NCBI GenBank assembly: GCA_001804285.1
Contig: MHFR01000043.1
Coordinates: forward strand, 22,970-86,969
Length of the DNA stretch: 64,000 nucleotides
Direction: 5' to 3'
DNA from: Candidatus Danuiimicrobium aquiferis
Lineage (GTDB): Bacteria > Omnitrophota > Omnitrophia > Omnitrophales > Danuiimicrobiaceae
Under the pieces are notes generated by a model that was not told the DNA's origin, ran no database searches, and was given only the letters and a program-made list of their open reading frames with translations. The position numbers and the translations under genes are program-made. Positions 1 to 30,900 of this stretch are shown here, one piece after another (within the stretch, counting starts at the first letter, position 1; every line of letters begins with the position of its first letter).

Positions 1-810
1 CTTAAAGAAATCGAAAACAAACGTGGAAATAGCACCGTAACAAGAAATTTACGACTCGCCTCTTTAAAAACATTTTTCTCCTACCTGATTACAAAAGACA
101 CGCTAAGGGTAGGTCAATATCAGAAAATTATTTCCATTCCCCTTAAAAAAGCTTCCCATCCCCTCATGGAATATCTGGAGGTCAACGAAGTCAAAGCTAT
201 TCTCAATGCCATTGACCGAGATGCATTTTCCGGTGAGCGCGATTACACGCTTCTCAACCTACTCTACAATACAGGAGCTCGAGTCCAAGAAGTCTGCGAC
301 CTTTCGGTAGGCGCTATTCAGTTGCATCATCCATCCTTTGTGACAATCACCGGAAAAGGACGCAAAACCAGACAAGTACCCCTTTGGCCTGAGACCGCCC
401 ATTTGTTAGAGTCCTATTTGACAGGTCGTGCCTTACTCGACAAACCGGATGCCAAGCTCTTTTTGAATGCCCGAGGAGAAACGCTAGGTCGATTTGGAAT
501 CCGGTATATCATTCGGAAAAGGATTGCTGGCGCCATTGATGACTGTCCGAGTTTGGCTAGCAAAAAAACAGGTCCTCATACCTTTCGCCATACGACGGCG
601 ATGCACTTGCTTCAAGCCGGCGTTGATCTCACGGTAATAAAAAGCTGGTTAGGTCATGCAAATTTATCGACAACGCATGGCTATCTTGAAATCGATCTTG
701 AAATGAAACGCAAAGCGCTTTCCATGTGTCACCCTGTAGGAAAATCTGTAGATTTGAAGAAATTCATGGAGCGAAACAAGGATGTTATCAGCTGGCTAGA
801 GTCCGTTTAG
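1..810 (+). CDS. Tyrosine recombinase / phage-type integrase, 5'-partial: the reading frame is open from base 1, and the ORF track only starts at the internal Met at 166
   Basis: C-terminal catalytic region with HTFRHTTAMHLL...GHANLSTTHGYLE (the R..H..R..Y catalytic signature). In-frame upstream residues NSTVTRNLRLASLKTFFSYL resemble the N-terminal core-binding domain. Confidence 0.8.
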   Translation, partial: LKEIENKRGNSTVTRNLRLASLKTFFSYLITKDTLRVGQYQKIISIPLKKASHPLMEYLEVNEVKAILNAIDRDAFSGERDYTLLNLLYNTGARVQEVCDLSVGAIQLHHPSFVTITGKGRKTRQVPLWPETAHLLESYLTGRALLDKPDAKLFLNARGETLGRFGIRYIIRKRIAGAIDDCPSLASKKTGPHTFRHTTAMHLLQAGVDLTVIKSWLGHANLSTTHGYLEIDLEMKRKALSMCHPVGKSVDLKKFMERNKDVISWLESV

Positions 811-889: not shown

Positions 890-1396
890 CTACTCAACAT
901 AAAAGCCATTATGTGGAGCTCCACATAAAGGTTTATAGGCAGTTTTGCAAAAATCAAAATGCCAGCCTTTTCCGTTTTCTTCCGTAGGATGTGAAGCGAA
1001 ATAATCGGAATGCTCCTTCGGGATGAGTCTCGGGAAAAAACAGGTCTCATGACTGCAATCTCCCGAGCAGGTCCGTTTATCGATCGTTTCACCGCCAAAC
1101 CACGGCTTCGATCTGACATCTTCAAGCCATGGATTAGCGATACCGCCTGCAATTTCTGACGGCCATGCAATCCCCAACTCGTGAGTGGCCGGATGATGGC
1201 ATTTCGCAAGACCGTTGAAAGAAATCAAGGTTTTATCGATGGTGGGTGTGCCCTCGCCGTCGCCATCAGCCAATTGAATCCCGAATTTATCGAAACTCGG
1301 CATTAACTTTTGAAAATCTGAGGCGATTCCGGCAAAAATGCCCGGCTCAATTTCTTTATCTTTCCGATACCAATAGTGTGTATATCCCATGTTCAA
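890..1396 (-). CDS. Hypothetical protein (168 aa), contains HHPATHELG and several Cys/His
   Basis: Long ORF co-directional with the downstream minus-strand cluster; no recognisable domain. Confidence 0.45.
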   Translation of the reverse strand: MNMGYTHYWYRKDKEIEPGIFAGIASDFQKLMPSFDKFGIQLADGDGEGTPTIDKTLISFNGLAKCHHPATHELGIAWPSEIAGGIANPWLEDVRSKPWFGGETIDKRTCSGDCSHETCFFPRLIPKEHSDYFASHPTEENGKGWHFDFCKTAYKPLCGAPHNGFYVE

Positions 1397-1478
1397 GACC
1401 TCCCTAAAAATAAAAAAGGGAAGAGACCCGAAGGCCGCTTCCCTTTTTGAAGTTGATATTCTTGTTTTTGAAAATTCT

Positions 1479-1868
1479 TTACTTCTGTTCGTTCCAGTTC
1501 CAGATAACGCTATTGACGTTTACGGGAACACATTTACGTTCTAAATGTTTACACCGTTCCGCTAACTCAAGAGCGGGGTTCTTTGCTTCCGCTGAAAAGG
1601 CAAACGAAAGATCGTAATGCTCCACGTGTTTTCCTTTCCAATAGACGTATCCTTCATGGTCGATCGTCAGATGCTCAACCCCATGAAGGAACGGCTTCTT
1701 GTATTTTCCGGAAGTTACTTCTTCGTGAAGTTCCTTAAACTTTCTTTCTCCTTTTTCATTCAGAAATCCATTGACGGCATTTTCGAGCAATTTCAAATGC
1801 TCGGGTGAAAGGTCCCCGCCGTCATTTGTTCTTGTTAATATGTCACACGCCATTCCACAGAAATTCAT
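1479..1868 (-). CDS. Hypothetical protein (129 aa)
   Basis: ORF co-directional with the cluster; no recognisable motif. Confidence 0.45.
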   Translation of the reverse strand: MNFCGMACDILTRTNDGGDLSPEHLKLLENAVNGFLNEKGERKFKELHEEVTSGKYKKPFLHGVEHLTIDHEGYVYWKGKHVEHYDLSFAFSAEAKNPALELAERCKHLERKCVPVNVNSVIWNWNEQK

Positions 1869-1893
1869 ATCTCAATCCTCCTTCGTTATTTGT

Positions 1894-2535
1894 TTAGATT
1901 GCCACAGCCACTTTCACTGTTTTGGGCACCATCACTTCTTCCTCCGTGATTTTGTGAGATTTTGCAAAATGGATGAACGACTCCACCGCTAAATCACATG
2001 TTCTGTCAAAATCTTTCACTAAAATCAAACGGCGGCGAAGATCCTCATGGCTCCACGATTCATAATCGCAATCGTCATCAGTTCCACGACCGGGATATGT
2101 GAATGGTTGCCAAAGAGGTCCCCGAAGAAGCTCCAACGTTCCGGAACAGCCTTCAACATGGCAAGGCTGGCGGGTTTCATACCATGTCGGAATAAAACAG
2201 TCCGTACAACACGTCTTATGTCCCGAATCTTTCTTACCGCCCTGATACAAAACCAGGTAGCCTCCGCTTCTTCCGTTTTGACCAATCTGCCACGCATAGT
2301 CATGACGGATAGCAAAATCGTGAAGAATCGCTGAGAACTCATCAAAGGATTCAGGAATGTCCAGCATGTCGTAACACTTGAGTTCCGTTTCTCGGTCAAG
2401 ACCGAGCTTACGGACTTTGATGTTTCGCGCATAACTGGTCGCTCTATTCCATGAATTTCCGGTGTGATACCGAAAATGCTCTTTCAATAGTTGACGCATC
2501 TTCTGTTTTGATCTTGGTGACTCTGTCATATTCAT
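1894..2535 (-). CDS. Hypothetical Cys-rich protein (213 aa)
   Basis: ORF with CCTDC...C.H..CxG cysteine cluster; function unknown. Confidence 0.45.
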   Translation of the reverse strand: MNMTESPRSKQKMRQLLKEHFRYHTGNSWNRATSYARNIKVRKLGLDRETELKCYDMLDIPESFDEFSAILHDFAIRHDYAWQIGQNGRSGGYLVLYQGGKKDSGHKTCCTDCFIPTWYETRQPCHVEGCSGTLELLRGPLWQPFTYPGRGTDDDCDYESWSHEDLRRRLILVKDFDRTCDLAVESFIHFAKSHKITEEEVMVPKTVKVAVAI

Positions 2536-2620: not shown

Positions 2621-3706
2621 TTATTTTTTTCCGGGCAGTTTCACCATTTTCCCAAATGATCCTGAAAAACTGCCTTCCGGCGTAATACACCAGAGAGTCT
2701 GAAATCTGGACCGTTCAGGATAATCACCGCAACCGTCTGTGAGATAGACAAGTGCATCCGGTCGAAGTTTCTCGGCCAGTTCAAAAACAGGTCTGAAACT
2801 TGTTCCGCCACGGCCTGAAACCGCTTTCGGACGCGATTTATAACGGTACACATTTCCCACTTTCGCATCGCATTCCGCGACCGTGACATCCATCCCCAGG
2901 GCCTTGATCTTCTCGATCTCGGTGAAAAAGAGCGAAAGCTCTCTGTCGCTGACACTGCCGCTTGTATCAAGTCCAATTAAGAGCTTCAGTTTCTGTTCTA
3001 CCTTCTCACCCGGCAGTTCCTCAAATCTCCGGTTCGGACGTTTTCTTGAAAAAACAGATTTCAAGAGCGTCGCATGGATAAGAAATCGCTCGAGTACCCG
3101 TCTCCAGTTAATTCCTGATTTTTCGAGAAACTCTTTCAGCGCTTTTTCCATGGTGCCGGGAAGTGAACCGTAATCTTTCGTCTCATCCAACGAAACTTTA
3201 ATGGAACGCCTTAAGAATTCCTGCTGGTATTCAGGGTCCTCGATTGACTCTTTCCAAAGATCGTGGTCATCAAGCATGTCTGAACTCATCTTTGCGGTCT
3301 TGACTTGGAGATTCCCAGCGTTCTCGACAAGCTTCTTGTAATACCATTCCGCGGTCTCATATTCCCCAAGATCGAAGAGCTTTGGAAGGAGAGCGGTTTT
3401 GGGAAGGCTCTCAATATATGGATTGATCGCAAGATCGCAGGCAATATTGAAAACCCGCTTGTCTTTGCCGTCTCCTCTGAAAAGATGAAGGTTTAAAAGA
3501 TGAAGCACTTCATGTTCAAGACAAGCGACCCGTTCCTTGAATTCGAGACCTTGAAGAAACACGGGGTTATAGTAAAGATTGATTCTGTTTGTGATATTGA
3601 CGCCGAGTGTCGGGACCCTCTCGGTTTCAATCCTGTTCATCTGCTGGATAAAATGAGCGTAAAAAGGTTTCGTTCTGACGAGTGAAACGACCATTTCTTC
3701 AATCAT
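2621..3706 (-). CDS. VWA-domain protein with N-terminal HExxH metallopeptidase-like domain (DUF2201-like partner of MoxR)
   Basis: HEVLH motif in the N-terminal third and a LIGLDTSGSVS MIDAS-like VWA motif further along. ATG at 3706 has an AAAGGAAG RBS and overlaps the upstream stop by 8 nt; the ORF-track start at 3730 is a TTG. Confidence 0.7.
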   Translation of the reverse strand: MIEEMVVSLVRTKPFYAHFIQQMNRIETERVPTLGVNITNRINLYYNPVFLQGLEFKERVACLEHEVLHLLNLHLFRGDGKDKRVFNIACDLAINPYIESLPKTALLPKLFDLGEYETAEWYYKKLVENAGNLQVKTAKMSSDMLDDHDLWKESIEDPEYQQEFLRRSIKVSLDETKDYGSLPGTMEKALKEFLEKSGINWRRVLERFLIHATLLKSVFSRKRPNRRFEELPGEKVEQKLKLLIGLDTSGSVSDRELSLFFTEIEKIKALGMDVTVAECDAKVGNVYRYKSRPKAVSGRGGTSFRPVFELAEKLRPDALVYLTDGCGDYPERSRFQTLWCITPEGSFSGSFGKMVKLPGKK

Positions 3707-4082
3707 GATGTCTTCCTTTCTTTGAATCAAATAATACGGTTTTGTTTTTAATCGCCTGTTCGTAGGCCACGTAAATCACTTTTCCTTTTGCGATCTCAAG
3801 CGCCCAATTGTCATCTCGCTCTTCCCCCGAGGCATCAATCCAACCTTGAACGTGCCCCGGGAAAGCTCTGACAATAGCCATCGCGAATTTTTCAAGTTCT
3901 TCGTGATAATTTTTCCAGTTGCCGAAGACGGAAATATGGAGGCCCTCCTTTGTTTTTTCGATTTTGACTTCATTCCGCCAGCCCGGAAAACGGCTCCTTA
4001 AAATATGGTTAAAACGCTTCAAGTCTTTTTCTTTCAAATCATCCATGTCGATACTTCCCGAAAAATCAGTGTAGTAACCCAT
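3699..4082 (-). CDS. Hypothetical protein (127 aa) wedged between the MoxR and VWA genes
   Basis: ORF with an 8-nt overlap onto the VWA gene start, consistent with translational coupling. Confidence 0.5.
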   Translation of the reverse strand: MGYYTDFSGSIDMDDLKEKDLKRFNHILRSRFPGWRNEVKIEKTKEGLHISVFGNWKNYHEELEKFAMAIVRAFPGHVQGWIDASGEERDDNWALEIAKGKVIYVAYEQAIKNKTVLFDSKKGRHHD

Positions 4083-5206: not shown

Positions 5207-6262
5207 TTAACGATTGAAGAAGTAGAGGATCTCGCTGAAGGAAGTAAAAGTCTGGCGGCGGAAAAAATAATATGAACCGCGCGTAGGGTGCGCGACTTCA
5301 ATACCGCCCAGTTTAGGTGAAATCCAAAGCAGATGATAATGAAAATGCTTGAGATAATACCATGCCAGTGCAGCGATCTTGTCCCGGTCCTCGCATGGAA
5401 CCGGCCTTGGAATTACCTTCTCTTCAATTACTTTGCTTGAAACTGTTCCGTCATTGAAATATCGGTAGGGCTGAACGATTTTGAATTTTTTTCTTTTAAG
5501 TGGATGAGCAACTCTCCACTCTGATTCTTTCGTTCTATATCTCGGCCGATACATCAATTTTTTTCCGCCATAAGCGAGAAGCCTTAAGAATTCTTCAGCG
5601 TTTCCGTACTGACGCCGGATACTTTGTAAGCACTGTTTTACCGTTTCTTCTTCCGTGACCATACAGTGCTTGATTATTTTTTGACTATTGAGACAGCAAG
5701 TCCCCTCGTAAATGCATCGTGAACAATATTTTGCTATCTTTTTTTCCTGATACTCCCATAAGTGGTGCGAGACGATCCGCATTTTCCTGTTACGCCGGAT
5801 CGTCTTGGAATTAAATTCAGTCCAGTTTATGTGTGGTGTGTAAAACCCGGAGAATTTGTTCACATCGGTAGGCCGGAGCTTCTTCCATCCATCAAGTGAA
5901 ATCTGAAACGCTTTAACATGGTCCACGGGATCAAAGGAACAACCGTTCGGCGCGATATTACGGTCAAAACAGTTGCCAGTGATCCCGTTCAGCTTGTTTT
6001 TGCATAAATCGCAAAATTTGGGATCTCTCATATTCCCATCTATCAGGATATAAGGTTTCGGATCTTCATCTAAATCTCCCCAGAGAGGATGATAACCATT
6101 TCCTGATGTTTCGACAGGCTTGCCTTTCACCTCACTTAAAGGAGTAATACAAAGTTTTTCCGACTCTTTCCTGACAAGGCAGGAGTCCGGTTTCAAAAAA
6201 TCAAGATCCTCCGGATTTGGGAAAACAAATGTTCCTTTTATCTTGGTGTAAACTTTTTCCAT
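5207..6262 (-). CDS. Cys-rich protein, paralogue A (351 aa), putative Zn-binding; function unknown
   Basis: Shares FCDLCKxKLNGITxNCFDRNI..GCSF and KYCSRCI..G.C..NS.KI..HC.V..EE.T..CLQ.I...GN.EEFL.LLAY blocks with the adjacent gene. Strong AGAAAGAGGA RBS. Confidence 0.6.
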   Translation of the reverse strand: MEKVYTKIKGTFVFPNPEDLDFLKPDSCLVRKESEKLCITPLSEVKGKPVETSGNGYHPLWGDLDEDPKPYILIDGNMRDPKFCDLCKNKLNGITGNCFDRNIAPNGCSFDPVDHVKAFQISLDGWKKLRPTDVNKFSGFYTPHINWTEFNSKTIRRNRKMRIVSHHLWEYQEKKIAKYCSRCIYEGTCCLNSQKIIKHCMVTEEETVKQCLQSIRRQYGNAEEFLRLLAYGGKKLMYRPRYRTKESEWRVAHPLKRKKFKIVQPYRYFNDGTVSSKVIEEKVIPRPVPCEDRDKIAALAWYYLKHFHYHLLWISPKLGGIEVAHPTRGSYYFFRRQTFTSFSEILYFFNR

Positions 6263-6295
6263 GTTAGTGTCCTCTTTCTAAGGTTGTGACAAAAA

Positions 6296-7402
6296 CTAAC
6301 GCTCAAAGCGTAGAATGTCGTTGAACGAACGAAAGATTTTGGTCTGACGGCTAAGCTGCCAGCCGTAAGGGTAATACATCACTTCAATTCCACCCGTAAC
6401 GGGAAGAACAGAAAGCACACGGATGGTCCGTCCCCGGTATCCCCGGTAAAAACCTCTGCCGTTTAAACAATACTTTTCAATAAAAAACCATGAAAGTGCG
6501 GCAATTCTCTCCCGGTTTTCTAAAGGGACCGTTTCCGGTGTGAGCGCTTTCTCTACCTTCCGCCTTGAGACTTTCGTCATTTTGAAAGGCCCATAGGCTT
6601 TGCGCACGAGAAAATGATTGCGGCCAAATGGTCTTGAAACCAGCCACCTCGATTTTCGGGACGCTTTCAACGGTCGATGAACGATCTCCTGTCCCGAATA
6701 GGCCAAAAGTTGAAGAAATTCCTCAATATTTCCAAACCTTTTCTGGATTCTCTGCAAGCAACGCTCGATCGTTTTCTCCTCAGTCAGCACCTTGCAATGT
6801 TCCGCAATTTTCGTGCTGTTCATGTAACAAAGTCCGTTAAAAATGCAGCGGGAGCAATATTTTTCTTCTTTGTTCTCGAGACATTCCCTGAAATTTGCTC
6901 TCACTTTCCGGGCATTTTTGTTTCGCGCAATTGTCTTTGCATCAAGACCAATATACTCGGCGCTGAACGGCTTTCTGAAAGGGGAATACCTATTTGCGTC
7001 AGTAGGCGCGAGATACTTCCAACCGTTAAGGTCAATATTAAATTCGGCCGGTTTTTTAAGCGGGACAAATGAACAGCCTTTGGATTTTATATTTCGATCA
7101 AAACAATTCGCCGTAATTCCGTTCAACTTATCTTTACACAGATCACAGAATTTCGCGCTTCTGCTCTCACCTCCAAGAACCAGAGATTTTTCCGCTTTTT
7201 CTCCATCGCTATAGATCCTGAATATTGAGTCCCACCTATCCGAACCCGTTTCAACCTCTTTTCCAGTTAAACATTCAAGAGATTGAACGTATAGCTGCCC
7301 TTTTCTCTTTGCTACAACGCAGGAGTCGAGCCTAAGTCCGCTCAAGTCCCCCGGATCATTCAGCACATAAATGTCCTGCAATTTTGTATAAAGCTTTTTC
7401 AT
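6296..7402 (-). CDS. Cys-rich protein, paralogue B (about 368 aa), putative Zn-binding; function unknown
   Basis: Collinear similarity to 5207..6262 across the whole length. Preferred start is the ATG at 7402 (AAAAGGAG RBS) rather than the ORF-track start at 7420. Confidence 0.6.
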   Translation of the reverse strand: MKKLYTKLQDIYVLNDPGDLSGLRLDSCVVAKRKGQLYVQSLECLTGKEVETGSDRWDSIFRIYSDGEKAEKSLVLGGESRSAKFCDLCKDKLNGITANCFDRNIKSKGCSFVPLKKPAEFNIDLNGWKYLAPTDANRYSPFRKPFSAEYIGLDAKTIARNKNARKVRANFRECLENKEEKYCSRCIFNGLCYMNSTKIAEHCKVLTEEKTIERCLQRIQKRFGNIEEFLQLLAYSGQEIVHRPLKASRKSRWLVSRPFGRNHFLVRKAYGPFKMTKVSRRKVEKALTPETVPLENRERIAALSWFFIEKYCLNGRGFYRGYRGRTIRVLSVLPVTGGIEVMYYPYGWQLSRQTKIFRSFNDILRFER

Positions 7403-7419
7403 GATGTCGCTCCTTTTCA

Positions 7420-7920
7420 TTATTTTTGCTGTTCAAAACGGATCCCTTCCAAGAAATACTGATTTAGCTTGTCTCTTACGTCATAATAAATATTCGCCAT
7501 CTCCTTCTGAAGCGCCTCGCTGGTCGGCCACACAAAATTCCATGCTTTAGAATCATGTTCACAAAGCACAACGTCTTGAAATATCACAAGCACGTGAGTG
7601 GTATCTTCATATGTGGGATCAACATAAATCGAGATCCCTGAATTGTGGATTTTCTTTTCGCGAAGATATTCATTCTCGACCTTGTCCCTGATGACACTGA
7701 AAAAGTCGTAGTATTTCGATTTGATTGCATAAAGGAGATCTTCCCCGACAAATTCTTCAGGAACACAACCTTCCTGTGGCTCCAAGTAAATTCTTCTTAC
7801 GAGGGCACATCCTTCATCCTCATGCCCCACTTCAAAGACACCTTGATAGCGGCTGAGAAGAAGCTTCTTTAATCCGTCATAAAGCTCGCAACTGAGTACT
7901 TCGCGTTTTGGATATTCCAT
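7420..7920 (-). CDS. Hypothetical protein (166 aa)
   Basis: ORF directly upstream of the Cys-rich pair on the same strand. Confidence 0.5.
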   Translation of the reverse strand: MEYPKREVLSCELYDGLKKLLLSRYQGVFEVGHEDEGCALVRRIYLEPQEGCVPEEFVGEDLLYAIKSKYYDFFSVIRDKVENEYLREKKIHNSGISIYVDPTYEDTTHVLVIFQDVVLCEHDSKAWNFVWPTSEALQKEMANIYYDVRDKLNQYFLEGIRFEQQK

Positions 7921-9214: not shown

Positions 9215-11068
9215 TTACTTTTCGTTCTTCAGCTCCTTAATGAATTGAAGTGGATTTTCAATCTCATCAAACACCTGCTCTTTTTCATGCTGTGTTTTCG
9301 GCTCCTCTTTTTTCTCTCCGACTTCCCTCGCTTTCTGGGGCTTTTTTCCATTCTTCTTCGAGCTTCGGCCTTGGCCTTGTACAAAATCAGAGGGATAACT
9401 GGAATAACCGAAGAAATCGAGTTTTACATGCTCGGTTAAAAGCGATGGGTTTTTCCAAATCACCGCGGCCTCGCCAACTTTGAGTGCCCGAATGAGGTCC
9501 GGCTCAATCCGAAAGGTTTGACCTTCTCTTACGGATCCTGCTCCCGTAAGACCTTTCCCCAGTATTTCTTCACGAGTTTGATATGTTGAAATCATGGTCC
9601 GGCGCGTTCCCGCGATTCTCGTGAATTTTTCAACCGAATAAGGATCATCCTGCCTGAGAATGATTTTGATATTGGTGTTTTCGATGACTTGCTGGGCAAA
9701 GGTGGGAACTCCCCGATAAACCAAATCGCCCGGTGACTGATGAAGAATCGTGACGGCAAAACCGCTTGCACGGCACTTGTTCAAAAAATCGATGAAATTG
9801 AGTTCCAGAAAACTTGACGCATCATCGATATAAACCGGGAAAAAATGACGGTTAAAAGACGTGATATGACCTTGTATATGGCTTGAAACAGAACGAATAT
9901 CCTGAATGATCATCCGCCCCAAACGGCGCGAAGTATCGGCGTATTTCTGTAAATCGAGGGCAAAATAGCAGATCTGATTATTTTCATAGATCGACAAGAG
10001 ATCGATTTCAGGTTCGTCAGTATCGAGAAGATTTGAGAATTCGCTTCGCGATGAAAGAAAAAGATCGGACATTAAACCTGCCAGAAATTTATGATTGTCC
10101 TTGAAACCGCTCACCATCTTGCCGATGTCCTCTTTGAGGACCGGATCTTTGGTCTCAGTCGATAGTTGTTTGAGAGCGTTAATGTCAGTGAGATAACCAA
10201 GAAGCTCACGAAAACGGGTTGTCTTTCCGGTCGAAACGATCGCGTTTAAAAGCGTAAGCGCCGCCTGCTCTGCCATACGGCGATAGAACTCTTCACTCCA
10301 GGCCATGCTGTTGATAAGTTTATCTTTAAGTTCGGTCGCATTACCGCGATAGAGAGGATTATAGGTGTTGGATTTTTCCGGGTGGCTCAACGAGAAGAAG
10401 TAAAAATCATCTTCTCGTTCCTTTTTGTGGACGATGTATTGGATTTTGTTTCTGAGATCCAGGTCGCCCTTGCCGTCGATAATGATTGCACCCTTACCGT
10501 GTGCAAGGTCATGAGCGAGCATCGGCAGAAGAACGGATTCGGTCTTGCCGGTGCCCGTGCTCCCGACAACCTCGCAATGCATCTGGCGTTGATCATTGGT
10601 CAGATAAAGCGGCTTCCCTCTATTTAAACCGTAACCGAGATAAATCTTGTGATAATCGGATTTGAGCCTTTGTCTTCGCATGAGAGCGGGATCAGGTTCT
10701 GGTTTATCGCCTTCCGGCTTGAACAGTTTCGCTTCCTGATTCAGATGAGCAACGGCCAAAAAGACGGGTAACGCGATCACGATGTAGACAAGGAAAAAGA
10801 AGCTAAACTTAATGCTCGATTCCCAACCCGAATTGATCGCTTCACTTTCGAAAATCAAGTTAAGCAAATCAAAGAACGCGCCTATGCTAAATGCGCAAAC
10901 GATCGAAAGAACAGTCAAAATCCCGAGAATCAATCTTTCAAGCCATGGCCTTTTGATTTTCGGAATAAGAACCAGAATACCTTTCGCAATCGTAAGCGGA
11001 ATTCCAATAAAAATTCCTCCGACGACCTTGACGATGAGTGACTCTTGTTTTACCGGAGGCTTTTGCAT
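9215..11068 (-). CDS. Membrane-anchored P-loop NTPase, TraD/TraG/VirD4-like type IV coupling protein
   Basis: N-terminal TM helices, Walker A GSTGTGKT, IIIDGKGDL (DPKGD-like) motif, Walker B VYIDDASSF, and a lysine-rich C-terminal tail. Confidence 0.55.
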   Translation of the reverse strand: MQKPPVKQESLIVKVVGGIFIGIPLTIAKGILVLIPKIKRPWLERLILGILTVLSIVCAFSIGAFFDLLNLIFESEAINSGWESSIKFSFFFLVYIVIALPVFLAVAHLNQEAKLFKPEGDKPEPDPALMRRQRLKSDYHKIYLGYGLNRGKPLYLTNDQRQMHCEVVGSTGTGKTESVLLPMLAHDLAHGKGAIIIDGKGDLDLRNKIQYIVHKKEREDDFYFFSLSHPEKSNTYNPLYRGNATELKDKLINSMAWSEEFYRRMAEQAALTLLNAIVSTGKTTRFRELLGYLTDINALKQLSTETKDPVLKEDIGKMVSGFKDNHKFLAGLMSDLFLSSRSEFSNLLDTDEPEIDLLSIYENNQICYFALDLQKYADTSRRLGRMIIQDIRSVSSHIQGHITSFNRHFFPVYIDDASSFLELNFIDFLNKCRASGFAVTILHQSPGDLVYRGVPTFAQQVIENTNIKIILRQDDPYSVEKFTRIAGTRRTMISTYQTREEILGKGLTGAGSVREGQTFRIEPDLIRALKVGEAAVIWKNPSLLTEHVKLDFFGYSSYPSDFVQGQGRSSKKNGKKPQKAREVGEKKEEPKTQHEKEQVFDEIENPLQFIKELKNEK

Positions 11069-11074
11069 ATGGCC

Positions 11075-11854
11075 TCACAAGAGCCGGCTCAGTTTGAAAC
11101 TGGCCCGCTTATTTTCGAAAAGTGCTTCCTCCCTGTCATTAATGAGTTCATGATAAGTTGTCATCCATATTCGTTTGGCATTGTAATCAAGTGCCCTCAC
11201 AAGCCAATCCTTCGTATCTCCGTCAACGATCACCAGAAGCACAAGATAGTTTTCCTGCTCTCCATAGTGATGAAAAAGCTCCTGATAGCGCTCCATGCTT
11301 TTGGTCAGGTGATTCTCAAATTCAATCGCGATTCGCTTTCCGCGAATATTGAGAACGCCGTCCGGAATCGAGTGCAAATGGTCTCGCGCTCTTAAGAGCC
11401 GTTCACTCGTCCATGAGTCGAGACCAAGACCGCGAAAAAGAATGCGGACACTGATCACTTTCAAATCGTGGTCAATCGAGCGATCAAAGTCTTTCGTGGG
11501 TTCATAAAGCGAAATTCCAGAATCAAACCCACGTTCCCGAAGAATGACCAGAGCTTTCTCAGTGATAAAATAGATGTCTAAACTCTTTTTCTTGGAATAC
11601 CCTTTCCGCAAATAACCGGAATTAACGAGCCGTTCGATTCGCCGGTAACATGCCTTGGCCGGTTCGGATCGGCCCTTCCAAAATGCTTCCCGTATCTGGC
11701 CGTAAGCCAGATAACGGTGTTCGTGCGCAAGCTTAAAGATCGCTACATCCCGGTCGGTTATTTCAACTGCTTCAATAATCTTTGAGGCTGGCTCAAGGCC
11801 GTCTTCAATGTCACCACCAGCCTCAGACTTTTTATCTTCAGGCAATTCATCCAT
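11075..11854 (-). CDS. Replication-relaxation family-like protein (winged-helix N-terminus), putative mobilisation function
   Basis: Size of about 250 aa, an N-terminal DNA-binding-like region, and placement directly downstream of the coupling ATPase. The family assignment is from memory, not a search. Confidence 0.35.
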   Translation of the reverse strand: MDELPEDKKSEAGGDIEDGLEPASKIIEAVEITDRDVAIFKLAHEHRYLAYGQIREAFWKGRSEPAKACYRRIERLVNSGYLRKGYSKKKSLDIYFITEKALVILRERGFDSGISLYEPTKDFDRSIDHDLKVISVRILFRGLGLDSWTSERLLRARDHLHSIPDGVLNIRGKRIAIEFENHLTKSMERYQELFHHYGEQENYLVLLVIVDGDTKDWLVRALDYNAKRIWMTTYHELINDREEALFENKRASFKLSRLL

Positions 11855-11961
11855 TGAAATTCCTCCTTAATATTTGCCATACGGCCTTGCATCAGGAGGA
11901 ATGACCCAACCGCACAGGGGGAAGATTTGCTGTCTTCCCCCTAGAGCATCCTTTCGACGGA

Positions 11962-12357
11962 TTACCTTGCAAAACTTCTGGCCGTTGAAATCGTTTGATT
12001 GAACCGGCCCCAAAGGTCGTTCAAAAGCAAACGTCTTTCTCGGCTCGCTTGGTAATCCTCCGCTGGTTTTTGAAACGTAACCTGCGGACGAAATGGTTGA
12101 GCCTTGCGAGCGCTCGGCATCTGTGGAATTATCAGATTTTTCGGCGTCTCTTCTTCCCACAGTTTTTGCCAAGATGCCCAAGCAAGATTAGAACCCCGAT
12201 ACATCAAAGTTAGAGTGGTTAAGGCCACAAAAAGCACAAAACCAAGACTGACTCCCGTACCGAACAATGCTCTAAATCTTGTCCAAAAATTCCTGGAAAC
12301 GTTTATTACGTTCACAGAAATTCCACGTTCTCCTCTTATTTCTAGTTCCTGTTTCAT
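11962..12357 (-). CDS. Small membrane protein (131 aa), hypothetical
   Basis: One clear TM helix (GVSLGFVLFVALTTLTLM) and an AAAGGAA RBS; preferred over the overlapping plus-strand ORF. Confidence 0.3.
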   Translation of the reverse strand: MKQELEIRGERGISVNVINVSRNFWTRFRALFGTGVSLGFVLFVALTTLTLMYRGSNLAWASWQKLWEEETPKNLIIPQMPSARKAQPFRPQVTFQKPAEDYQASRERRLLLNDLWGRFNQTISTARSFAR

Positions 12358-12583
12358 CGTCTTGTTCCTTTCTCTGTCTGTTGGCTTTAAGGCCGTAATA
12401 GCACCAGGTTTAAGACTGGTCGTTGTAATGCATTTAAATAGTTGTCCTCATAGTATGGGTCAAAACAGGCATACCTTGGATCAAGGACACTGGCATTTTG
12501 AAAAAATATTTGAAAATAAATTGAAAAAAGTTATGAAAGGAGGGAGTTTTAAGGATAAAGACCCGCACCTGGACATGCCGAAC

Positions 12584-12645
12584 TGAACCATTCGACTACG
12601 GTCCCGAGAGTAAATATTATGTCGAGGGAGCGTAGTCGAATGGTT
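12584..12645. repeat. Perfect 16-bp inverted repeat (GAACCATTCGACTACG / CGTAGTCGAATGGTTC) with a 30-nt spacer
   Basis: Read directly at 12584-12599 and 12630-12645, inside a roughly 520 bp intergenic gap. Confidence 0.7.
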
Positions 12646-12876
12646 CGTACAGGTGAAAAATCGTGTAGAGCTTGATTAAATACGGCATGTCCGGGTGCGG
12701 GATGGAATCAATCTGTTAATGCTTTTCTTTGAGTATGTCGAACCGAATGTCACAATTTCTTTATTATGTGGAGCTCAACATGAAATGATCTATCAGCCAT
12801 CTCATTTGCTCCCCAAATTATTACTCGTCAAACCCCGACTGTCTCAAACTCAAGATTCCCAGTTCGCACCCAATGC

Positions 12877-13617
12877 TTATTTAAGACGAGCGGCCGTTGC
12901 CGCAATATGCCCAGCAAGTGATGTAATAAAGGTCTTCAAGCTAGTCATATCAGAAATCGTAGAAAATCTGCCATCATTCACAGCGTTCCTTGGCGTTGCA
13001 AGAACAGCTGCTGATGTATACAATTGCTCCTGCACTAATTTTTGGCACAACAAATCATATCTTTTCAAATACGACGCCCCATTGAACTCAGCGAAGATTG
13101 GAAAGTGCGGCGACTTGTCCCCCACTGGTGTATTTGAAGCTGACGCATCTTCAACGAGCATCAACCAACCGACAAAGGGTCGCGGCTGTTTTCCAAAAGC
13201 CCCCTCACGATAAGCAACGCACAAATCATGAGCTGTCCCTATAGCTTCTTCGGTTCTATTGTTAAAATTGTTGCCGAACGAAGGGCCAACTTGACTCTTG
13301 AACTCAACGGCGGCAACAAGTTCTTTCTTATGGATGACCAGAAGATCCCACAATTTTGTCGGGCGGAAATAACCCGGAAGAGTTAATAACGCGCGCTCAC
13401 GATAGACCTCCGCGACATTCAAGCCATTGGCACTAACGATATCCAGAACTAAATCCACAAATCCATTCATATTTTTACCAGCAGTCACACCGGCCCGCTC
13501 TCCCTGATCCGCCTTCCCAGATTCCATTTGCTTAGTTCGAGCCGCATCCCGACTCCCCCAAAAAGATTGTATAGCTTCACGAGCCTTGGATTCATAGCCT
13601 ACTAAATTGAGTGCCAT
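12877..13617 (-). CDS. Putative type II restriction endonuclease (XhoI/PaeR7I-like)
   Basis: 246 aa. Start is 1 nt after the stop of the N6-adenine methyltransferase gene, the same size and arrangement as the PaeR7I R gene. Family assignment is from memory. Confidence 0.45.
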
Positions 13618-13618
13618 T

Positions 13619-15340
13619 TTAATCTCCGATCCCCATTAGTATCGATTTTTCTTTTTCATTTAAATCATAAAGCTTAAAAACAGCTCGATCACAAGCTTCC
13701 AAATCTCTCTTTATACCCGCACTAATAAGCTCGTGACGCAAATGAGTCGAGATATCCTGCCAACTCGGAATTCTAATCCGCCTTAGATATTGAGCCTGAA
13801 ATCTCAAACACCCACCTCTCATTTTTATAGAATACGCCATTAAAAAAAGACGGGTAATTCGTGAAAGAAGCACGGCCTGTAATGCACGAAGCGACCACGA
13901 GCTTGACATTATATAATATAGATTATGGTGAGGATAGAACTCGCCTTTATCAAAAACAATATTTGCATCGCCCTTGATGTCTGGTATTAAAAGTTTAGGC
14001 TTTTTCAAAACCTCAGGGAAAATGCGATCAATAGTTCGATACCAGTGCTCTGGCATTTTCTGAGCACAATGTCGGTTCTTAATTAGTTGTTCCCGCTGTT
14101 CTAGATGATTTCGCAAACGCGGATACTTCTTTAAATCTACAAGTCGTCCCTCCAACCCAAAGGGATTAATAACGCCCAATCCTCGCCACTTTATTTCACC
14201 TGATACGATATCTTTCGTTGTAACCAACGGCAACTTACAATCTTCTTCAACATCAAGTTTCTCAAAAATATCTATAAAAGCATTATCGGCCCCGGTAGCG
14301 ACGCCAATGCCAACCTTGCATCCCATTTCCTCTAAGCACGGATACTGTTTTTCAATGCGTCGCAGAATTTCTACCTGGGCGGGACAATCAAACAACCACG
14401 GTTCAGACCCATGCACAACATGATTAAGCTCGCACACCGAACTTCCAGGTGCTAATTGATGTCGAAAATTTAATTCATTAGCTAATGCCCTCAACTTTTC
14501 TTGTTCGATTGATGGCCGATGAGCTATCCTTGTTGGCCCTGAGTTTTTCTTACCAATAATAGTAATTGCCGGATACGCTGTAACTTCCGAATAAAAAGCC
14601 AAGGTATTTACCATATCCACATAATTAATTAAGTGGAAATGATCCGCTACGAGCTTTCGTAAAGGAGCGCCATACTTATTCTTCATCCACCGATCAGAGC
14701 AAATAAACCCTAAAACCCCGCCATCTGATAAAGACTCAAGAGAATGCTCAATAAAAGGCACATACAAGTCAGCCCTATCATATAAGGTAGGATAACGCCC
14801 CCTATATTCCTGGAGTAACAGATGGGGAATCAACTCTTGCCGCACATATGGAGGGTTACCAACAATAAAGTCAAACTTATCTTTTAATGGCACAAGCAAA
14901 AAATCACCCTGAAACAACCAGCTATCCGCCAAAGCAACTGCTAAAGAAGATTTAATACCCTTCTGTTCCAAAAAACCAATCACTCTAAAACGAGTTTTAT
15001 TAAATGTTTTCTTATGAAGTTCTACTGCGCGAATGGCCCCAAATAAATTTTCGGCAGAGCCTTTCTCCCTTTTAGCTCTTCCCCGTGCAGCAAGCAACCG
15101 ATCAATTATTGGCAAGAGGAAATCTCCTTCACCAAAAGAAGGCTCCAAAATCTTCTTTTGGCACAAAAGATTGTCTTCCGTATAACCTACTAAGTTTAAG
15201 ATAAAATTAACGACTTCAGTCCGCGTAAATACCGCACCTCTTTCTTCGGCATCGCCCTGATTTGCCAAATCCTCAACAGCATCCAAGACAAGCGGTCCAC
15301 ATTGGTTATCGTGATTAAATAAAAGTGACGATCCCTTCAT
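13619..15340 (-). CDS. N6-adenine DNA methyltransferase, gamma class (Eco57I/PaeR7I-type, N6_Mtase)
   Basis: Motif [12 protein letters not shown] comes before motif [10 protein letters not shown]; 573 aa. Confidence 0.8.
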
Positions 15341-17882: not shown

Positions 17883-18488
17883 ATGACCGAGATCCTCGTT
17901 ATCGATGATGATACAAATGTTTTAGATGCCACAAAAGATGCTTTAAACGCTTTTGGCTACGAAGTTCATACGTCCACTTCGCCCGACGAAGCTTTTCAAT
18001 TGCTTCATCAAAATCCGAATCGCTTTGATCTGATTCTTCTCGACTGGCAATTTCCCTGCGCTGTTCACGGAGATATGTTCCTCAAATTAATCAATCACTG
18101 TATTCCTGACTTTAAAAAACCCATTATCTTTATTACAGGCCATACATCGTTTATTTCAAAACATGCGATCCGGCTTGGCGCTTATGACACCCTCGCAAAA
18201 CCAATTATTGCCGATGTGCTAATCGATGCCGTCGAACGTGCTCTTCAAAAAAGACCGCCGGAAAATCCACATCAAAAAGTTCCGGCTGACATGAGCTGGC
18301 AGAAGCAAAAGAAATTGGAGCTTGCAATGAGAATCACGGATGCGATCATTTCCACTAATTCATTGTCTGATGCGGCCCAAAAGCTTGAATGCTCACGCAT
18401 GACTCTTAACCGCTGGCTTCGATTCACAGGGCTTAACTCGTTTGTCATTATCAAAGAACATCAATCTAAAGGGAAGATTACCCAATGA
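17883..18488 (+). CDS. Response regulator: CheY-like receiver plus C-terminal Fis-type HTH
   Basis: ILVIDDD...LILLDWQFP receiver motifs; C-terminal LECSRMTLNRWL helix-turn-helix. Confidence 0.8.
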   Translation: MTEILVIDDDTNVLDATKDALNAFGYEVHTSTSPDEAFQLLHQNPNRFDLILLDWQFPCAVHGDMFLKLINHCIPDFKKPIIFITGHTSFISKHAIRLGAYDTLAKPIIADVLIDAVERALQKRPPENPHQKVPADMSWQKQKKLELAMRITDAIISTNSLSDAAQKLECSRMTLNRWLRFTGLNSFVIIKEHQSKGKITQ

Positions 18489-18531
18489 ATTTCGAAATGT
18501 CAAACGCAAGACATTGTGATACAAAGACTTA

Positions 18532-18642
18532 TGTAACACATAATGTTACAAAAAAGAGCACCCTTCACCTTATGGGGTGTAACATAAGATGTTACACTTT
18601 TTGGGCATTATAAGGAAAAGGCATGTAACATTTTATGTTACA
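18532..18642. promoter_or_regulatory. Array of three 19-bp palindromes TGTAACA-N5-TGTTACA with 46 bp centre-to-centre spacing (candidate operator sites)
   Basis: Copies at 18532-18550, 18578-18596 and 18624-18642, inside the 190 bp gap between the response-regulator gene and the histidine-kinase gene. Confidence 0.55.
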
Positions 18643-18681
18643 TAAATTTATTTTCAAAAATGCGAAAAAAAGGCGGAAATA

Positions 18682-27900: not shown

Positions 27901-30900
27901 AAGAGCTGCATATCCCAGGATCTTCCCCCATGTCGGGCTAAATATCGACACAACAGCGCTTGCTACCGTCAATACGAACGAAATAACGAAGAAGAGAAAC
28001 GGAAGAAACGCACCTTGAATTTTCAATGCGGTTTCTTTAGAAACTTCTTTTCCCAACATGACCTTTTCCGTTGGAACAATTAAATAGCCGCCTTTGCCAT
28101 CAACATCCCATGTTTCAAGAAACTGATCTTTATCTATTGTTAAATCCTCCCCATTCTCACCCTTTGACACTTCCCGATAAAAAACTTCCGTCTCCGTGAC
28201 ATTCGTAATCTGTATATAATGATCTTTCGCTATGTGCGCTATGATTCTCAAAGAACATGGCGTTTGAGACGACGGACATACGGTACGATATAAATTGAGT
28301 AAATCGGCGTAGGTATATTGGACAGTCGAAAAATTATCATTATGAATCGCTGCCACTTTCATCATTGCGTATGCAGATAAAACAAGCTCTCCTGTCAAAA
28401 ATCGAGTAATCAGCCCCATCAAAATATCTATCAAAATCAGTTCTTTCCCGAGCACATCCGCTGCGACATTAATTCCTCGTGATGCGAGCATTTCTTTAAG
28501 CGCTAAATAGGCCGATTGCCCGAAATGCAGGTCTCGTGATTCAAGCCATGCAAGAATCTCGCTGACATCGGTCGAATCTAAATCGACTACGTCGCCCGGT
28601 TGTAATTTAAGTTGATTCAGCATGGCCTCTTTTGCGGCCGACTGTGCCGTGACATAATTTGTAAGAAATGTACGAACCCCGCTAATAATCGCCTGCTTCT
28701 CATTCAACCGTCGCGTTTTTTCGGAATTTGCGGAAGGATCGTTTAACCTGCTATAAAGAAGTGTCGTATCAACCGAAGGTGTATTTGTTCCAGCCGCATT
28801 CGGTTGATATTTCGCAAGCGTATCGTCCGTCCAATACTCAAGTTCTGCCGAAGACGGATCTCGCCCTAAAATACGGCGGTAATAATCGGAAAGAACCGGC
28901 TCCACTTCGCGTTTCAGAATGTCGCGTTCAATATCTTTCTTTTGATTTCCAAGTTCAATCAGCCGATCCGCTATCGCATTTTCTATCTCCTGTTTCCGAG
29001 CATCCACTTCCCCGGGAATAAGCGAAAGCTGTGTTTCCGCCGTCTGAAGAAGCTCTGTCCGTTGACTACGAAGCTGATTAATCGCGTCCTGAACCCCGGG
29101 AACTTCGAACCGTTCGACGTGACAGCCATACTTGAAACCCATAAAGTTTTTGCATTTCTTTATCTCCTGGTATTTCTGGCTTTCGTAGCTTGAAATCTGA
29201 CCGTCTATTGCAGCAATTCCGGAATCAAGGTTCTCCTGAATCTGCGCTCGCGCAACCTCATCCTGCCATGCAAGGTTTTGAAGCGCGTCATACTTTGTTT
29301 GCTCGATTTGATGTTGCTGCTCTATTTCGTCACTCACCAAATCCTGTCTTGCTTTCACCATATTCACTTTACTTAAAAGATAATCTTCCGGTTTGTTGCA
29401 AGTTACAGGACAAACATATTCATACGAATAAACCAAATTCCCATCTCCATTAAACACTTCTTTAATCCGGCCATTCTGATAATACGATCTTTGTCCGTCT
29501 AACCTTTCGGCGAGCATCATCTGATTCGAGCCGCCATAAACCGCCGATTTCTGTATATCTTCGGATGGCTTCAGGCTCTGGTATGCCACCATAAATGCCG
29601 AGTATGCGTCATTCGCGCTAACCGCAGTTTTAACGATCAAAGGGTTATTGCTCCATTTTGAATCGCTTGTAATCGGCTTGTTTATTTCCTCCTCGGATTC
29701 TATCGTGCTTGATAAATCAGTTTTATTTGCGGCTTGATGCCCGTTTCCATCCAAGAAGTTTTTATTTCCCATTAATAAATATTTTCCGCCGGAACTTTCC
29801 GCGTCTCCCAAAGTCAAAGGCCTCGCTCCCATATCTTTGAGTAAACTGGAGATATCGCTTCTGATCTGATTCATTTGCGGATCGTTGACCGCAAGGACCA
29901 TATATTCGCCATTCTTGATGTTTTCGAGAAAGTTCTTCAGTCCCAGTCGATCGGCAGCGGATGAAAATGTGCCGGAAAAAGAAAGCCACTGCCCTTCCGC
30001 TTCTTTATAGACCGCCACTAAAAAGCCGTCTCCATCGTGCCGGGCAACTTCCTTGCCGGAATCCATTAAGCGCTGCGAACCACCATCCGTTAATAACTCA
30101 ATGGGTTTTGGGAATGCCACACCTTGATAAGAAAATTGTTTTTTTCGATGAACAGAATATGAAATCGCCTCTCCGGCAGCATTCGTCTGATACGTAATAT
30201 CATCCGTCGTTCCCTGCGGCGTCTCCACTTTAATCAACCGGCCCTGCCGGTCATAAGTGTATTTGTTGTAAGCGTACCCGGCAAATTGACGGAATATTCC
30301 CGTATATTTGTAAAGCTCCACTCTTCGATAGGTTTTAAATCCGAGATAGCCGCCGTCTGCTCCCTGAACAAATTCCGGGTTATACGCGACCGGATAATCC
30401 ATGGGATAGGGCACGTCGAAAAGCTCACCGGTCTCAAGCCTGCCGCGGACAGGTAAGTAATTTTCAATTTCAAGAATCATCCCGTTTGCAAATTGGATCT
30501 GGCCGCTTTTAATCTTAAGTTCTTCATCAAATTCAAGATTGACGCCATGATCACCATTGGCAAATTTTATTTCACCTTTCGTCCCCTTATCGAATCCATA
30601 TAAAATCTGGGATCCGTCAGCTGCTTGAAAGCCCGACAAGGTAACTGCCCTCAAATCCTTCGCATCAATCAATGCTCGTTTATAATCGTCTTTCCACATA
30701 TATGGATATGACGATGAAAATTGAAAATCGGAATACGTGTATAAGTAACCGTCTTTTGTAATGTGTTTAATCAAATTTCCGTTCTTGTCATAAAACCATG
30801 TCGTTCCATCCTCATCCGTGACTTGCGTTTCTTCATCCGTAAAATGATACTGGCTGCTCTGAAGCACCTTGTTTTTATACGCAATCTCAGCACCGATCAA

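Follow-up and report, generated by a model that had tools for sequence, protein, structure and literature searches.

A tandem pair of rare eight-cysteine proteins encoded beside a MoxR-vWA-peptidase module on an Omnitrophota mobile element

A 64,000-nucleotide stretch of the genome of Candidatus Danuiimicrobium aquiferis (Omnitrophota; assembly GCA_001804285.1, contig MHFR01000043.1, positions 22,970 to 86,969 of the forward strand), here called the window, encodes two adjacent cysteine-rich proteins, A and B, directly upstream of genes for a MoxR-type ATPase and a peptidase-vWA fusion protein. The two paralogues, their cysteine sites and their immediate neighbours lie as follows, in window coordinates.

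7420..7920, minus strand: acidic 166-amino-acid protein (p166), isoelectric point (pI) 4.85, directly upstream of B and conserved in Omnitrophota-type elements
6296..7402, minus strand: paralogue B, 368 amino acids, pI about 9.7, GenBank OGW81659.1, 'hypothetical protein'
7073..7147, minus strand: cysteine site 1 of B, C92, C95, C106 and C116 (numbering of a 374-amino-acid form)
6794..6856, minus strand: cysteine site 2 of B, C189, C192, C198 and C209 (same 374-amino-acid numbering)
5207..6262, minus strand: paralogue A, 351 amino acids, pI 9.35, GenBank OGW81658.1, 'hypothetical protein'
5939..6013, minus strand: cysteine site 1 of A, C84-x2-C87-x10-C98-x9-C108
5663..5725, minus strand: cysteine site 2 of A, C180-x2-C183-x5-C189-x10-C200
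4098..5144, minus strand: MoxR-type AAA+ ATPase (AAA_5, phrog_1297), Walker A GQHGIGKS, Walker B ILFLDE, directly downstream of A
3699..4082, minus strand: small 127-amino-acid protein (p127), between the ATPase and vWA genes and conserved in Omnitrophota-type elements only
2621..3730, minus strand: fusion of a DUF2201_N zincin-like metallopeptidase (HEVLH) with a DUF2201 vWA domain (phrog_1314), whose metal ion-dependent adhesion site (MIDAS) reads DTSGS; start codon uncertain

The open reading frame (ORF) of B reaches 6296..7420, and an alternative upstream ATG at 7420 would give the 374-amino-acid form. The ATG at 7402 is most likely the true start because AAAGGAG stands 7 nt upstream of it, homologues open with MKK.YT and OGW81659.1 has 368 amino acids; the span of 5207-7402 that a first-pass annotation, made from the letters of the DNA, had assigned to the pair is therefore right. 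The ribosome-binding site AAGAGGA precedes the ATG of A at 6262, and the gene next downstream of A also has a ribosome-binding site of its own. A and B align over their full length with 40% identity (148/367; BLASTP, expectation value (E) 2e-94), far beyond chance, and all three of the shared sequence blocks quoted in that annotation are found in the alignment. No other protein encoded in the window belongs to the family. A lacks a loop of about 15 residues, rich in R, G and Y, that is present in B and in the single-copy forms described below, and A is therefore the derived copy.

We note that A and B are members of an undescribed and very rare family, here called Cys8. Relatives numbered 23 in a word-indexed search of 5.8 billion proteins and only 27 in an exhaustive HMMER profile search that covered 1.84 billion cluster representatives; a wider word-indexed profile search gave no further members. 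The close relatives fall into two length classes, one of 351-353 amino acids (A-type) and one of 367-383 amino acids (B-type or single-copy). The first-pass annotation had assigned the pair to no family, and the database searches bear this out: neither A nor B has a family match in Pfam (E up to 0.1), PHROGs, NCBIfam or PADLOC; the 23 members gave only noise against Pfam (E of at least 0.0035); single-sequence and profile searches of the PDB returned nothing below E 0.2; and Foldseek found no match in BFVD at E up to 0.001. No relative was found by tblastn in 50,697 phage records or 72,556 plasmid records, or by four different queries among IMG/VR viral contigs. The more distant relatives, for their part, lie on contigs of many small ORFs, some of which have PHROG matches; these contigs look phage-like, a phage origin being suggested solely by the gene-size pattern and those few PHROG matches. 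So far the family is confined to uncultured lineages.

The cysteines are the family's hallmark. Each of the two sites consists of a CxxC and two single cysteines, with one C..C motif per site, and among 24 close sequences C28, C84, C87, C98, C108, C180, C183, C189 and C200 (A numbering) are invariant. In alignments of 23-39 sequences, reaching down to 14% identity, the eight site cysteines and the start methionine are the only invariant or near-invariant columns. The cysteines are kept invariant, or in at least 90% of sequences, where relatives share just 14-25% overall identity, and in the widest alignments site 2 has three invariant cysteines, the fourth, C200, being nearly so (at least 90%). 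The two conserved four-cysteine clusters that had been proposed from A and B alone are thus invariant in the 24 close homologues and near-invariant family-wide; their absence from homologues would have told against the proposal, and the ligands are conserved. Variation is of a particular kind. Histidine replaces C84, giving HxxC, in four distant members (P0034, P0036, P0039 and P0042), the spacers vary among distant members (x3-x11 and x5-x20), and the C-x2-C-x5-C spacing of site 2 is seen in the close family only.

Four ligands kept across divergent homologues, with cysteine and histidine interchangeable, are what is generally expected of a structural zinc site. The two four-cysteine sites behave like metal ligands, and we infer that they are putative metal-binding sites. 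Zinc would be the more likely metal than an iron-sulphur (Fe-S) cluster, because a cysteine-to-histidine swap at the first ligand is more usual for zinc than for a cubane Fe-S centre. The first-pass annotation had suggested zinc-ribbon-like or treble-clef-like sites, and this needs amending. Four-cysteine modules of those two types likewise have four cysteines per site, including a CxxC knuckle, and tolerate cysteine/histidine interchange, but a classical zinc ribbon has two CxxC (or CxxH) knuckles per site, whereas A and B have one. No zinc-ribbon or Fer4 model is significant for the family: in the Pfam scan of relatives, Zn_ribbon_HMPTM matched 1/23 at E 0.038 and Fer4_16 matched 3/23, weakly, at E 0.066. 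The canonical spacings of [4Fe-4S] cluster proteins are CxxCxxC...CP, as in ferredoxins, or C-x6-C-x2-C-x5-C, and C-x2-C-x5-C occurs in the Fe-S loops of EndoIII and Cas4. In the close family site 2 matches this spacing, as found in the EndoIII/MutY and Cas4/AddB loops; Cys8 proteins differ in having no glycosylase or nuclease fold or motif.

With regard to the rest of the chain, an AlphaFold2 model built from 24 sequences has a mean predicted local distance difference test score (pLDDT) of 79.8 and a predicted template modelling score (pTM) of 0.53, with the lowest confidence exactly at the cysteine loops. A model of residues 76-351 from 39 sequences reaches pLDDT 88.1 and pTM 0.76, with site 2 at pLDDT of at least 90; low confidence at site 1 would be expected for a metal-dependent loop. 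The sole fold matches are to binding barrels of the SH3/Tudor/KOW/PWWP type, including a PWWP domain bound to single-stranded DNA (ssDNA), and these small beta-barrels are the nearest fold likeness of the Cys8 proteins. The architecture is best explained, as far as the models go, as a helical core combined with one or more small beta-barrels of SH3/Tudor type. The cysteine sites are separated by a basic helix. All members are basic, and all but one have a pI of 9.1-10.0. We also considered an enzyme (a nuclease, glycosylase, primase, or a relaxase using the invariant Tyr5) and rejected it, there being no conserved acidic or histidine catalytic residues and no such fold. Indeed the family alignments contain no conserved acidic or histidine residue of catalytic type, and profile, PDB and fold searches yielded no confident match to an enzyme family, a result that would have overturned the first-pass view of the pair.

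The genes next to A and B are far easier to assign. The ATPase and the fusion protein match Pfam AAA_5 and DUF2201_N/DUF2201 with E of 1.9e-12, 2.4e-23 and 7e-19, and match their PHROG families with E of 5e-67 and 1.5e-69. Walker A, Walker B, HEVLH and DTSGS are intact in the window and in every homologous locus checked. The ATPase scores 20 bits against bpMoxR, below the 27-bit cut-off, and has marginal PADLOC matches only (DolB, E 7e-4). Membership of p166 in this module is uncertain.

Co-occurrence of the Cys8 gene with the MoxR-vWA genes, tested by mapping the window proteins onto the ORFs of all fetched loci, proved nearly universal. The order p166, Cys8 protein or proteins, AAA_5, small ORF, DUF2201 is found in ten of ten distinct Omnitrophota-type elements (the window, the P0010 type, L011, L012, L013, L016, the L004 type, L015, L017 and L018). 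Six of these carry the B-then-A pair and four (the L004 type, L015, L017 and L018) a single B-like copy, so the second paralogue is optional. Among distant relatives (22-30% identity), linkage to AAA_5 and DUF2201 holds in six of the eight loci with readable flanks: the Cys8 gene lies just upstream of AAA_5 in L009, L010 and L021, it lies downstream of DUF2201 in L007 and L027, and in L024 AAA_5-x-DUF2201 has a copy on either side. Flanks were too short to show a neighbour in L006, L008, L028 and L029, of which L008 and L029 are the same contig.

The pair is not a recent product. In a neighbour-joining tree the A clade is recovered in 198/200 bootstraps and the B clade in 187/200, while A, B and the single-copy forms together are monophyletic in 162/200, without a supported branching order among the three. 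The subtree of A is almost congruent with that of B, and because both clades are also robust, the duplication is old; tandem duplication followed by divergence, as first proposed, therefore needs this qualification, although A and B are true paralogues. The two copies of L024 are never sisters (0/200 bootstraps), so the two-paralogue state arose at least twice.

Selection was gauged from the ratio of nonsynonymous to synonymous substitution rates (dN/dS) of the closest orthologue pairs, since a comparison of A with B is uninformative, synonymous sites being saturated at 40% identity. Values are 0.16-0.19 for A and 0.10-0.18 for B, against 0.03 for the AAA_5 ATPase, 0.07 for DUF2201 and 0.105 for the type IV coupling protein encoded further upstream. 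Both A and B are thus under purifying selection. In deep comparisons the ATPase remains 49-57% and DUF2201 46-56% identical where the Cys8 proteins are only 22-30% identical. On the strength of these identities and the higher dN/dS, the Cys8 component, constrained as it is, is the fastest-evolving part of the module, at about twice the rate of its partners.

The surroundings of the module had been described as a defence-like island. They are instead the backbone of an integrative conjugative or mobilisable element, as judged from the following three genes and from the type IV secretion genes of sister loci.

9215..11068, minus strand: type IV coupling protein, with TrwB_AAD_bind, TraG-D_C and T4SS-DNA_transf matches
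11075..11854, minus strand: Replic_Relax relaxase-like protein, upstream of the module
166..810, plus strand: tyrosine recombinase (Phage_integrase match), 214 amino acids, on the other side of the module

Coupling protein and Replic_Relax genes also lie upstream in L001, L004, L011, L013, L015, L016 and L018, and sister loci add RadC, a PC4-like protein, TrbC and VirB4/TraC; the mating-pair-formation type IV secretion system genes (VirB4/TraC and TrbC) are present in L001 and L002. Over 1 to 17 kb of the window no such secretion gene was observed; the element may extend past the left edge. We note that the 214-residue recombinase consists of a catalytic domain alone, without an N-terminal core-binding domain, and may be truncated or use an unlisted start; it is encoded on the strand opposite to the element genes.

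The theme of a MoxR ATPase paired with a vWA protein is known from at least two settings with which this module can be compared. For group 2.2 jumbo phages, Iyer et al. (2021, PMC7824862) described a pair of MoxR and peptidase-vWA proteins, chaperone and co-chaperone respectively, a two-component arrangement for which a role in virion assembly was proposed (PMC7824862). That pair corresponds to phrog_1297 and phrog_1314 (AAA_5 with DUF2201_N/DUF2201), and the window partners share its architecture, with intact Walker A/B, HExxH and MIDAS motifs. Unlike it, the window pair sits on a conjugative element without virion genes and has a conserved third component, the Cys8 protein. The second setting is the ternary MoxR-vWA conflict systems of VMAP type, whose third protein is distinctive, evolves rapidly and has its gene 5' of MoxR (Kaur, Burroughs, Iyer and Aravind 2020, PMC7159879). 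The Cys8 module matches their order of third component, MoxR and vWA (PMC7159879), and as in those systems the non-ATPase parts co-evolve, and the third component evolves faster than MoxR and occurs in paralogous copies; placement of the Cys8 gene after the vWA gene in L007, L027 and L024 is an alternative to the VMAP order. The differences are nevertheless considerable. No VMAP-C domain, which the VMAP third component carries, is found in A or B by Pfam at E up to 0.1, and the modelled secondary-structure layout differs as well. The MoxR of VMAP systems has an N-terminal WxhapG / PsWRxa extension; the window ATPase has none, since its Walker A begins at residue 24. The window vWA protein has an N-terminal peptidase as compared to the C-terminal effector arrays of VMAP systems, and host range (Omnitrophota mobile elements) and setting differ too. 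Searches for literature on DUF2201, or on MoxR in plasmid leading regions, found nothing relevant.

Based on synteny, relative rates and composition, we favour, with a probability of roughly 0.4, a reading in which A and B bind metal and belong, as an adaptor subunit or as a client, to a MoxR-vWA-peptidase system of mobile elements, probably forming a hetero-oligomer where there are two copies. The module would then consist of a fast-evolving Cys8 protein, a MoxR-type AAA+ ATPase and a zincin-vWA (MIDAS) fusion protein. The basic surface and barrel domains of the Cys8 protein might bind nucleic acid or a host protein as its target, and the vWA-MIDAS domain could engage the Cys8 protein, after which the ATPase would remodel the bound complex and the peptidase process it. 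We infer physical contact with one of the partners (vWA or MoxR), the role of adaptor and its timing: Cys8 would provide the adaptor or specificity function at the stage when the element, or a phage, becomes established in a new cell, and where two paralogues are present they would probably do so as a hetero-oligomer.

This leads us to speculate further, and with a good deal less conviction, that the whole is a three-part anti-host device. In such a device the Cys8 metalloprotein, sometimes a heterodimer, would pick out host defence or repressor proteins or nucleoprotein complexes, which MoxR, as a trans-acting AAA+ unfoldase, and the vWA-tethered zincin would remodel or cleave soon after entry; it would be programmable, FtsH-like, and carried by conjugative elements and phages. 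As a system the module is a variant of the known MoxR-vWA theme and is not categorically new. MoxR-vWA pairs are widespread, however, and their client or target is mostly unknown, so that a strictly linked, faster-evolving third protein offers an experimental handle on the targets of the mobile-element version. The reach of the Cys8 family itself, which is covered by no model in Pfam, NCBIfam or PHROGs and whose whole-chain fold is not recognisable, is limited for the moment by its rarity and its restriction to uncultured lineages.

Several observations count against an adaptor that is integral to the machine. Among distant members, the 3-kb contig of L022 lacks an ATPase gene, and in L023 the 1.2 kb downstream likewise contain none. 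The ATPase has homologues in 619 annotated phage records, and in the four phage neighbourhoods that we inspected (Moorella MTATph1, Vibrio phiKT1024, Erwinia phiEaP-8 and Bacillus AR9) there is no Cys8 family gene, while a DUF2201-type gene adjoins the ATPase in three of the four; the ATPase/DUF2201 pair therefore works without Cys8. Gene-wide dN/dS gives no sign of diversifying selection. Finally, the synteny could merely reflect co-transcription of unrelated establishment genes.

Alternatively, the Cys8 protein might itself carry the activity and be the client, a metalloprotein with Fe-S or zinc centres whose maturation or folding is handled by the adjacent MoxR-vWA chaperone. There are several analogues of such a relationship, for instance NorQ/NorD with NorB, CoxD/CoxE with CO dehydrogenase, CbbQ/CbbO with Rubisco, and RavA-ViaA with Fe-S respiratory complexes. 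The tight adjacency of the Cys8 gene to the MoxR-vWA genes would be explained, as would a family defined by eight invariant metal-type ligands, the unsureness of AlphaFold2 about cysteine loops modelled without a cofactor, the three weak Fer4_16 matches (E 0.066) and the close-family spacing of site 2 that recalls the EndoIII and Cas4 Fe-S loops. We nevertheless consider it unlikely: no conserved catalytic or polar residues imply an activity in need of maturation, the histidine substitution and variable loop lengths suit zinc better than a cubane cluster, simple zinc sites are normally chaperone-independent, and the fused peptidase of active type (HEVLH) would be left unexplained.

Doubtful to a similar degree is the proposal that Cys8 is an independent, zinc-stabilised regulator or establishment protein that binds DNA or RNA and is merely co-transcribed with MoxR-vWA. 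A pI of 9.1-10 in nearly all members, the basic helix between the cysteine sites and the SH3/Tudor/KOW/PWWP-like barrel matches, with the ssDNA-bound PWWP among them, would all suit such a factor, as would a position between the DNA-processing genes (relaxase-like, type IV coupling protein, PC4-like and RadC) and the rest of the element; zinc-finger activators of phage late genes, such as Ogr and Delta, show that proteins of this general kind exist. Co-transcription alone hardly accounts for a linkage to AAA_5 and DUF2201 that survives at about 22% identity and through changes of element type and gene position, and the Pfam scans detected no helix-turn-helix or known DNA-binding family.

That the two proteins supply effector and specificity functions to a MoxR-VWA system of anti-phage defence, as the cargo of a defence island, seems to us improbable in spite of a nearby XhoI-type restriction-modification system, the documented ternary MoxR-vWA conflict systems (PMC7159879) and a third component that evolves faster than its partners. 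Neither A nor B has a PADLOC match and the ATPase has marginal ones only, the module sits at the same place of the backbone in all sister elements, relatives lie on phage-like contigs of small ORFs, phages have the homologous ATPase/vWA-peptidase pair as an early-gene module, and there is no effector-type domain and the second copy is dispensable. The first-pass idea of an effector or specificity pair is weakened accordingly, given four related elements with a single copy, ordinary purifying selection and no conserved polar residues of catalytic type.

A number of smaller observations concern the loci compared here. In L024 (5824..11200) the two non-sister members flank AAA_5, a 131-amino-acid ORF and DUF2201, and a giant protein of more than 2400 amino acids is encoded on the other strand. 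Downstream of the Cys8 gene in L023 lies a 152-amino-acid ORF that matches the family profile with E 6.6e-17 and may be a partial paralogue. In Bacillus phage AR9 (L026, 3932..6649) an annotated early promoter precedes the ATPase and DUF2201 homologues, gp028 and gp029. Several phage records, and PHROGs too, give the DUF2201 protein the label 'HNH endonuclease', apparently a misannotation that has been passed on. Of the small proteins of the element, the acidic p166, which accompanies the basic Cys8 proteins in most Omnitrophota-type elements, may be their partner or may serve them as a charge-neutralising chaperone. The proteins p168, p129, p213 and p127 (890..2535 and 3699..4082, minus strand) have no family match in any library and are found in Omnitrophota-type elements only; p127 and p168 both start MGY(Y)T, and p213 has a Cys-rich stretch of its own, CCTDC...C..EGC.

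Some 1 kb (11855..12876) separates the Replic_Relax gene from the restriction-modification genes; it contains short overlapping ORFs only, without a family match, and is a candidate origin of transfer (oriT) or regulatory region. Next to it, at 12877..15340 on the minus strand, are genes for an XhoI-family restriction endonuclease (E 2.8e-97) and an Eco57I/N6_Mtase/TaqI_C methyltransferase, a pair that lies just past the end of the element marked by the relaxase and is probably cargo. A response regulator and two HisKA_7TM/GAF histidine kinases (17883..23023, plus strand) flank the element, and a similar set flanks the single-copy element on the opposite side in L004 (15388..21134) and L005; the set may mark a shared insertion neighbourhood or be element cargo. 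Further along on the minus strand, a 1618-amino-acid ORF with a weak Glucodextran_B match (42139..46995) precedes a giant ORF of 5712 amino acids (24961..42099) with Big_3_2, Big_13 and DUF7743 (Ig-like) and RHS-repeat matches, and in L004 too an RHS/YD-shell giant protein is encoded near the element.

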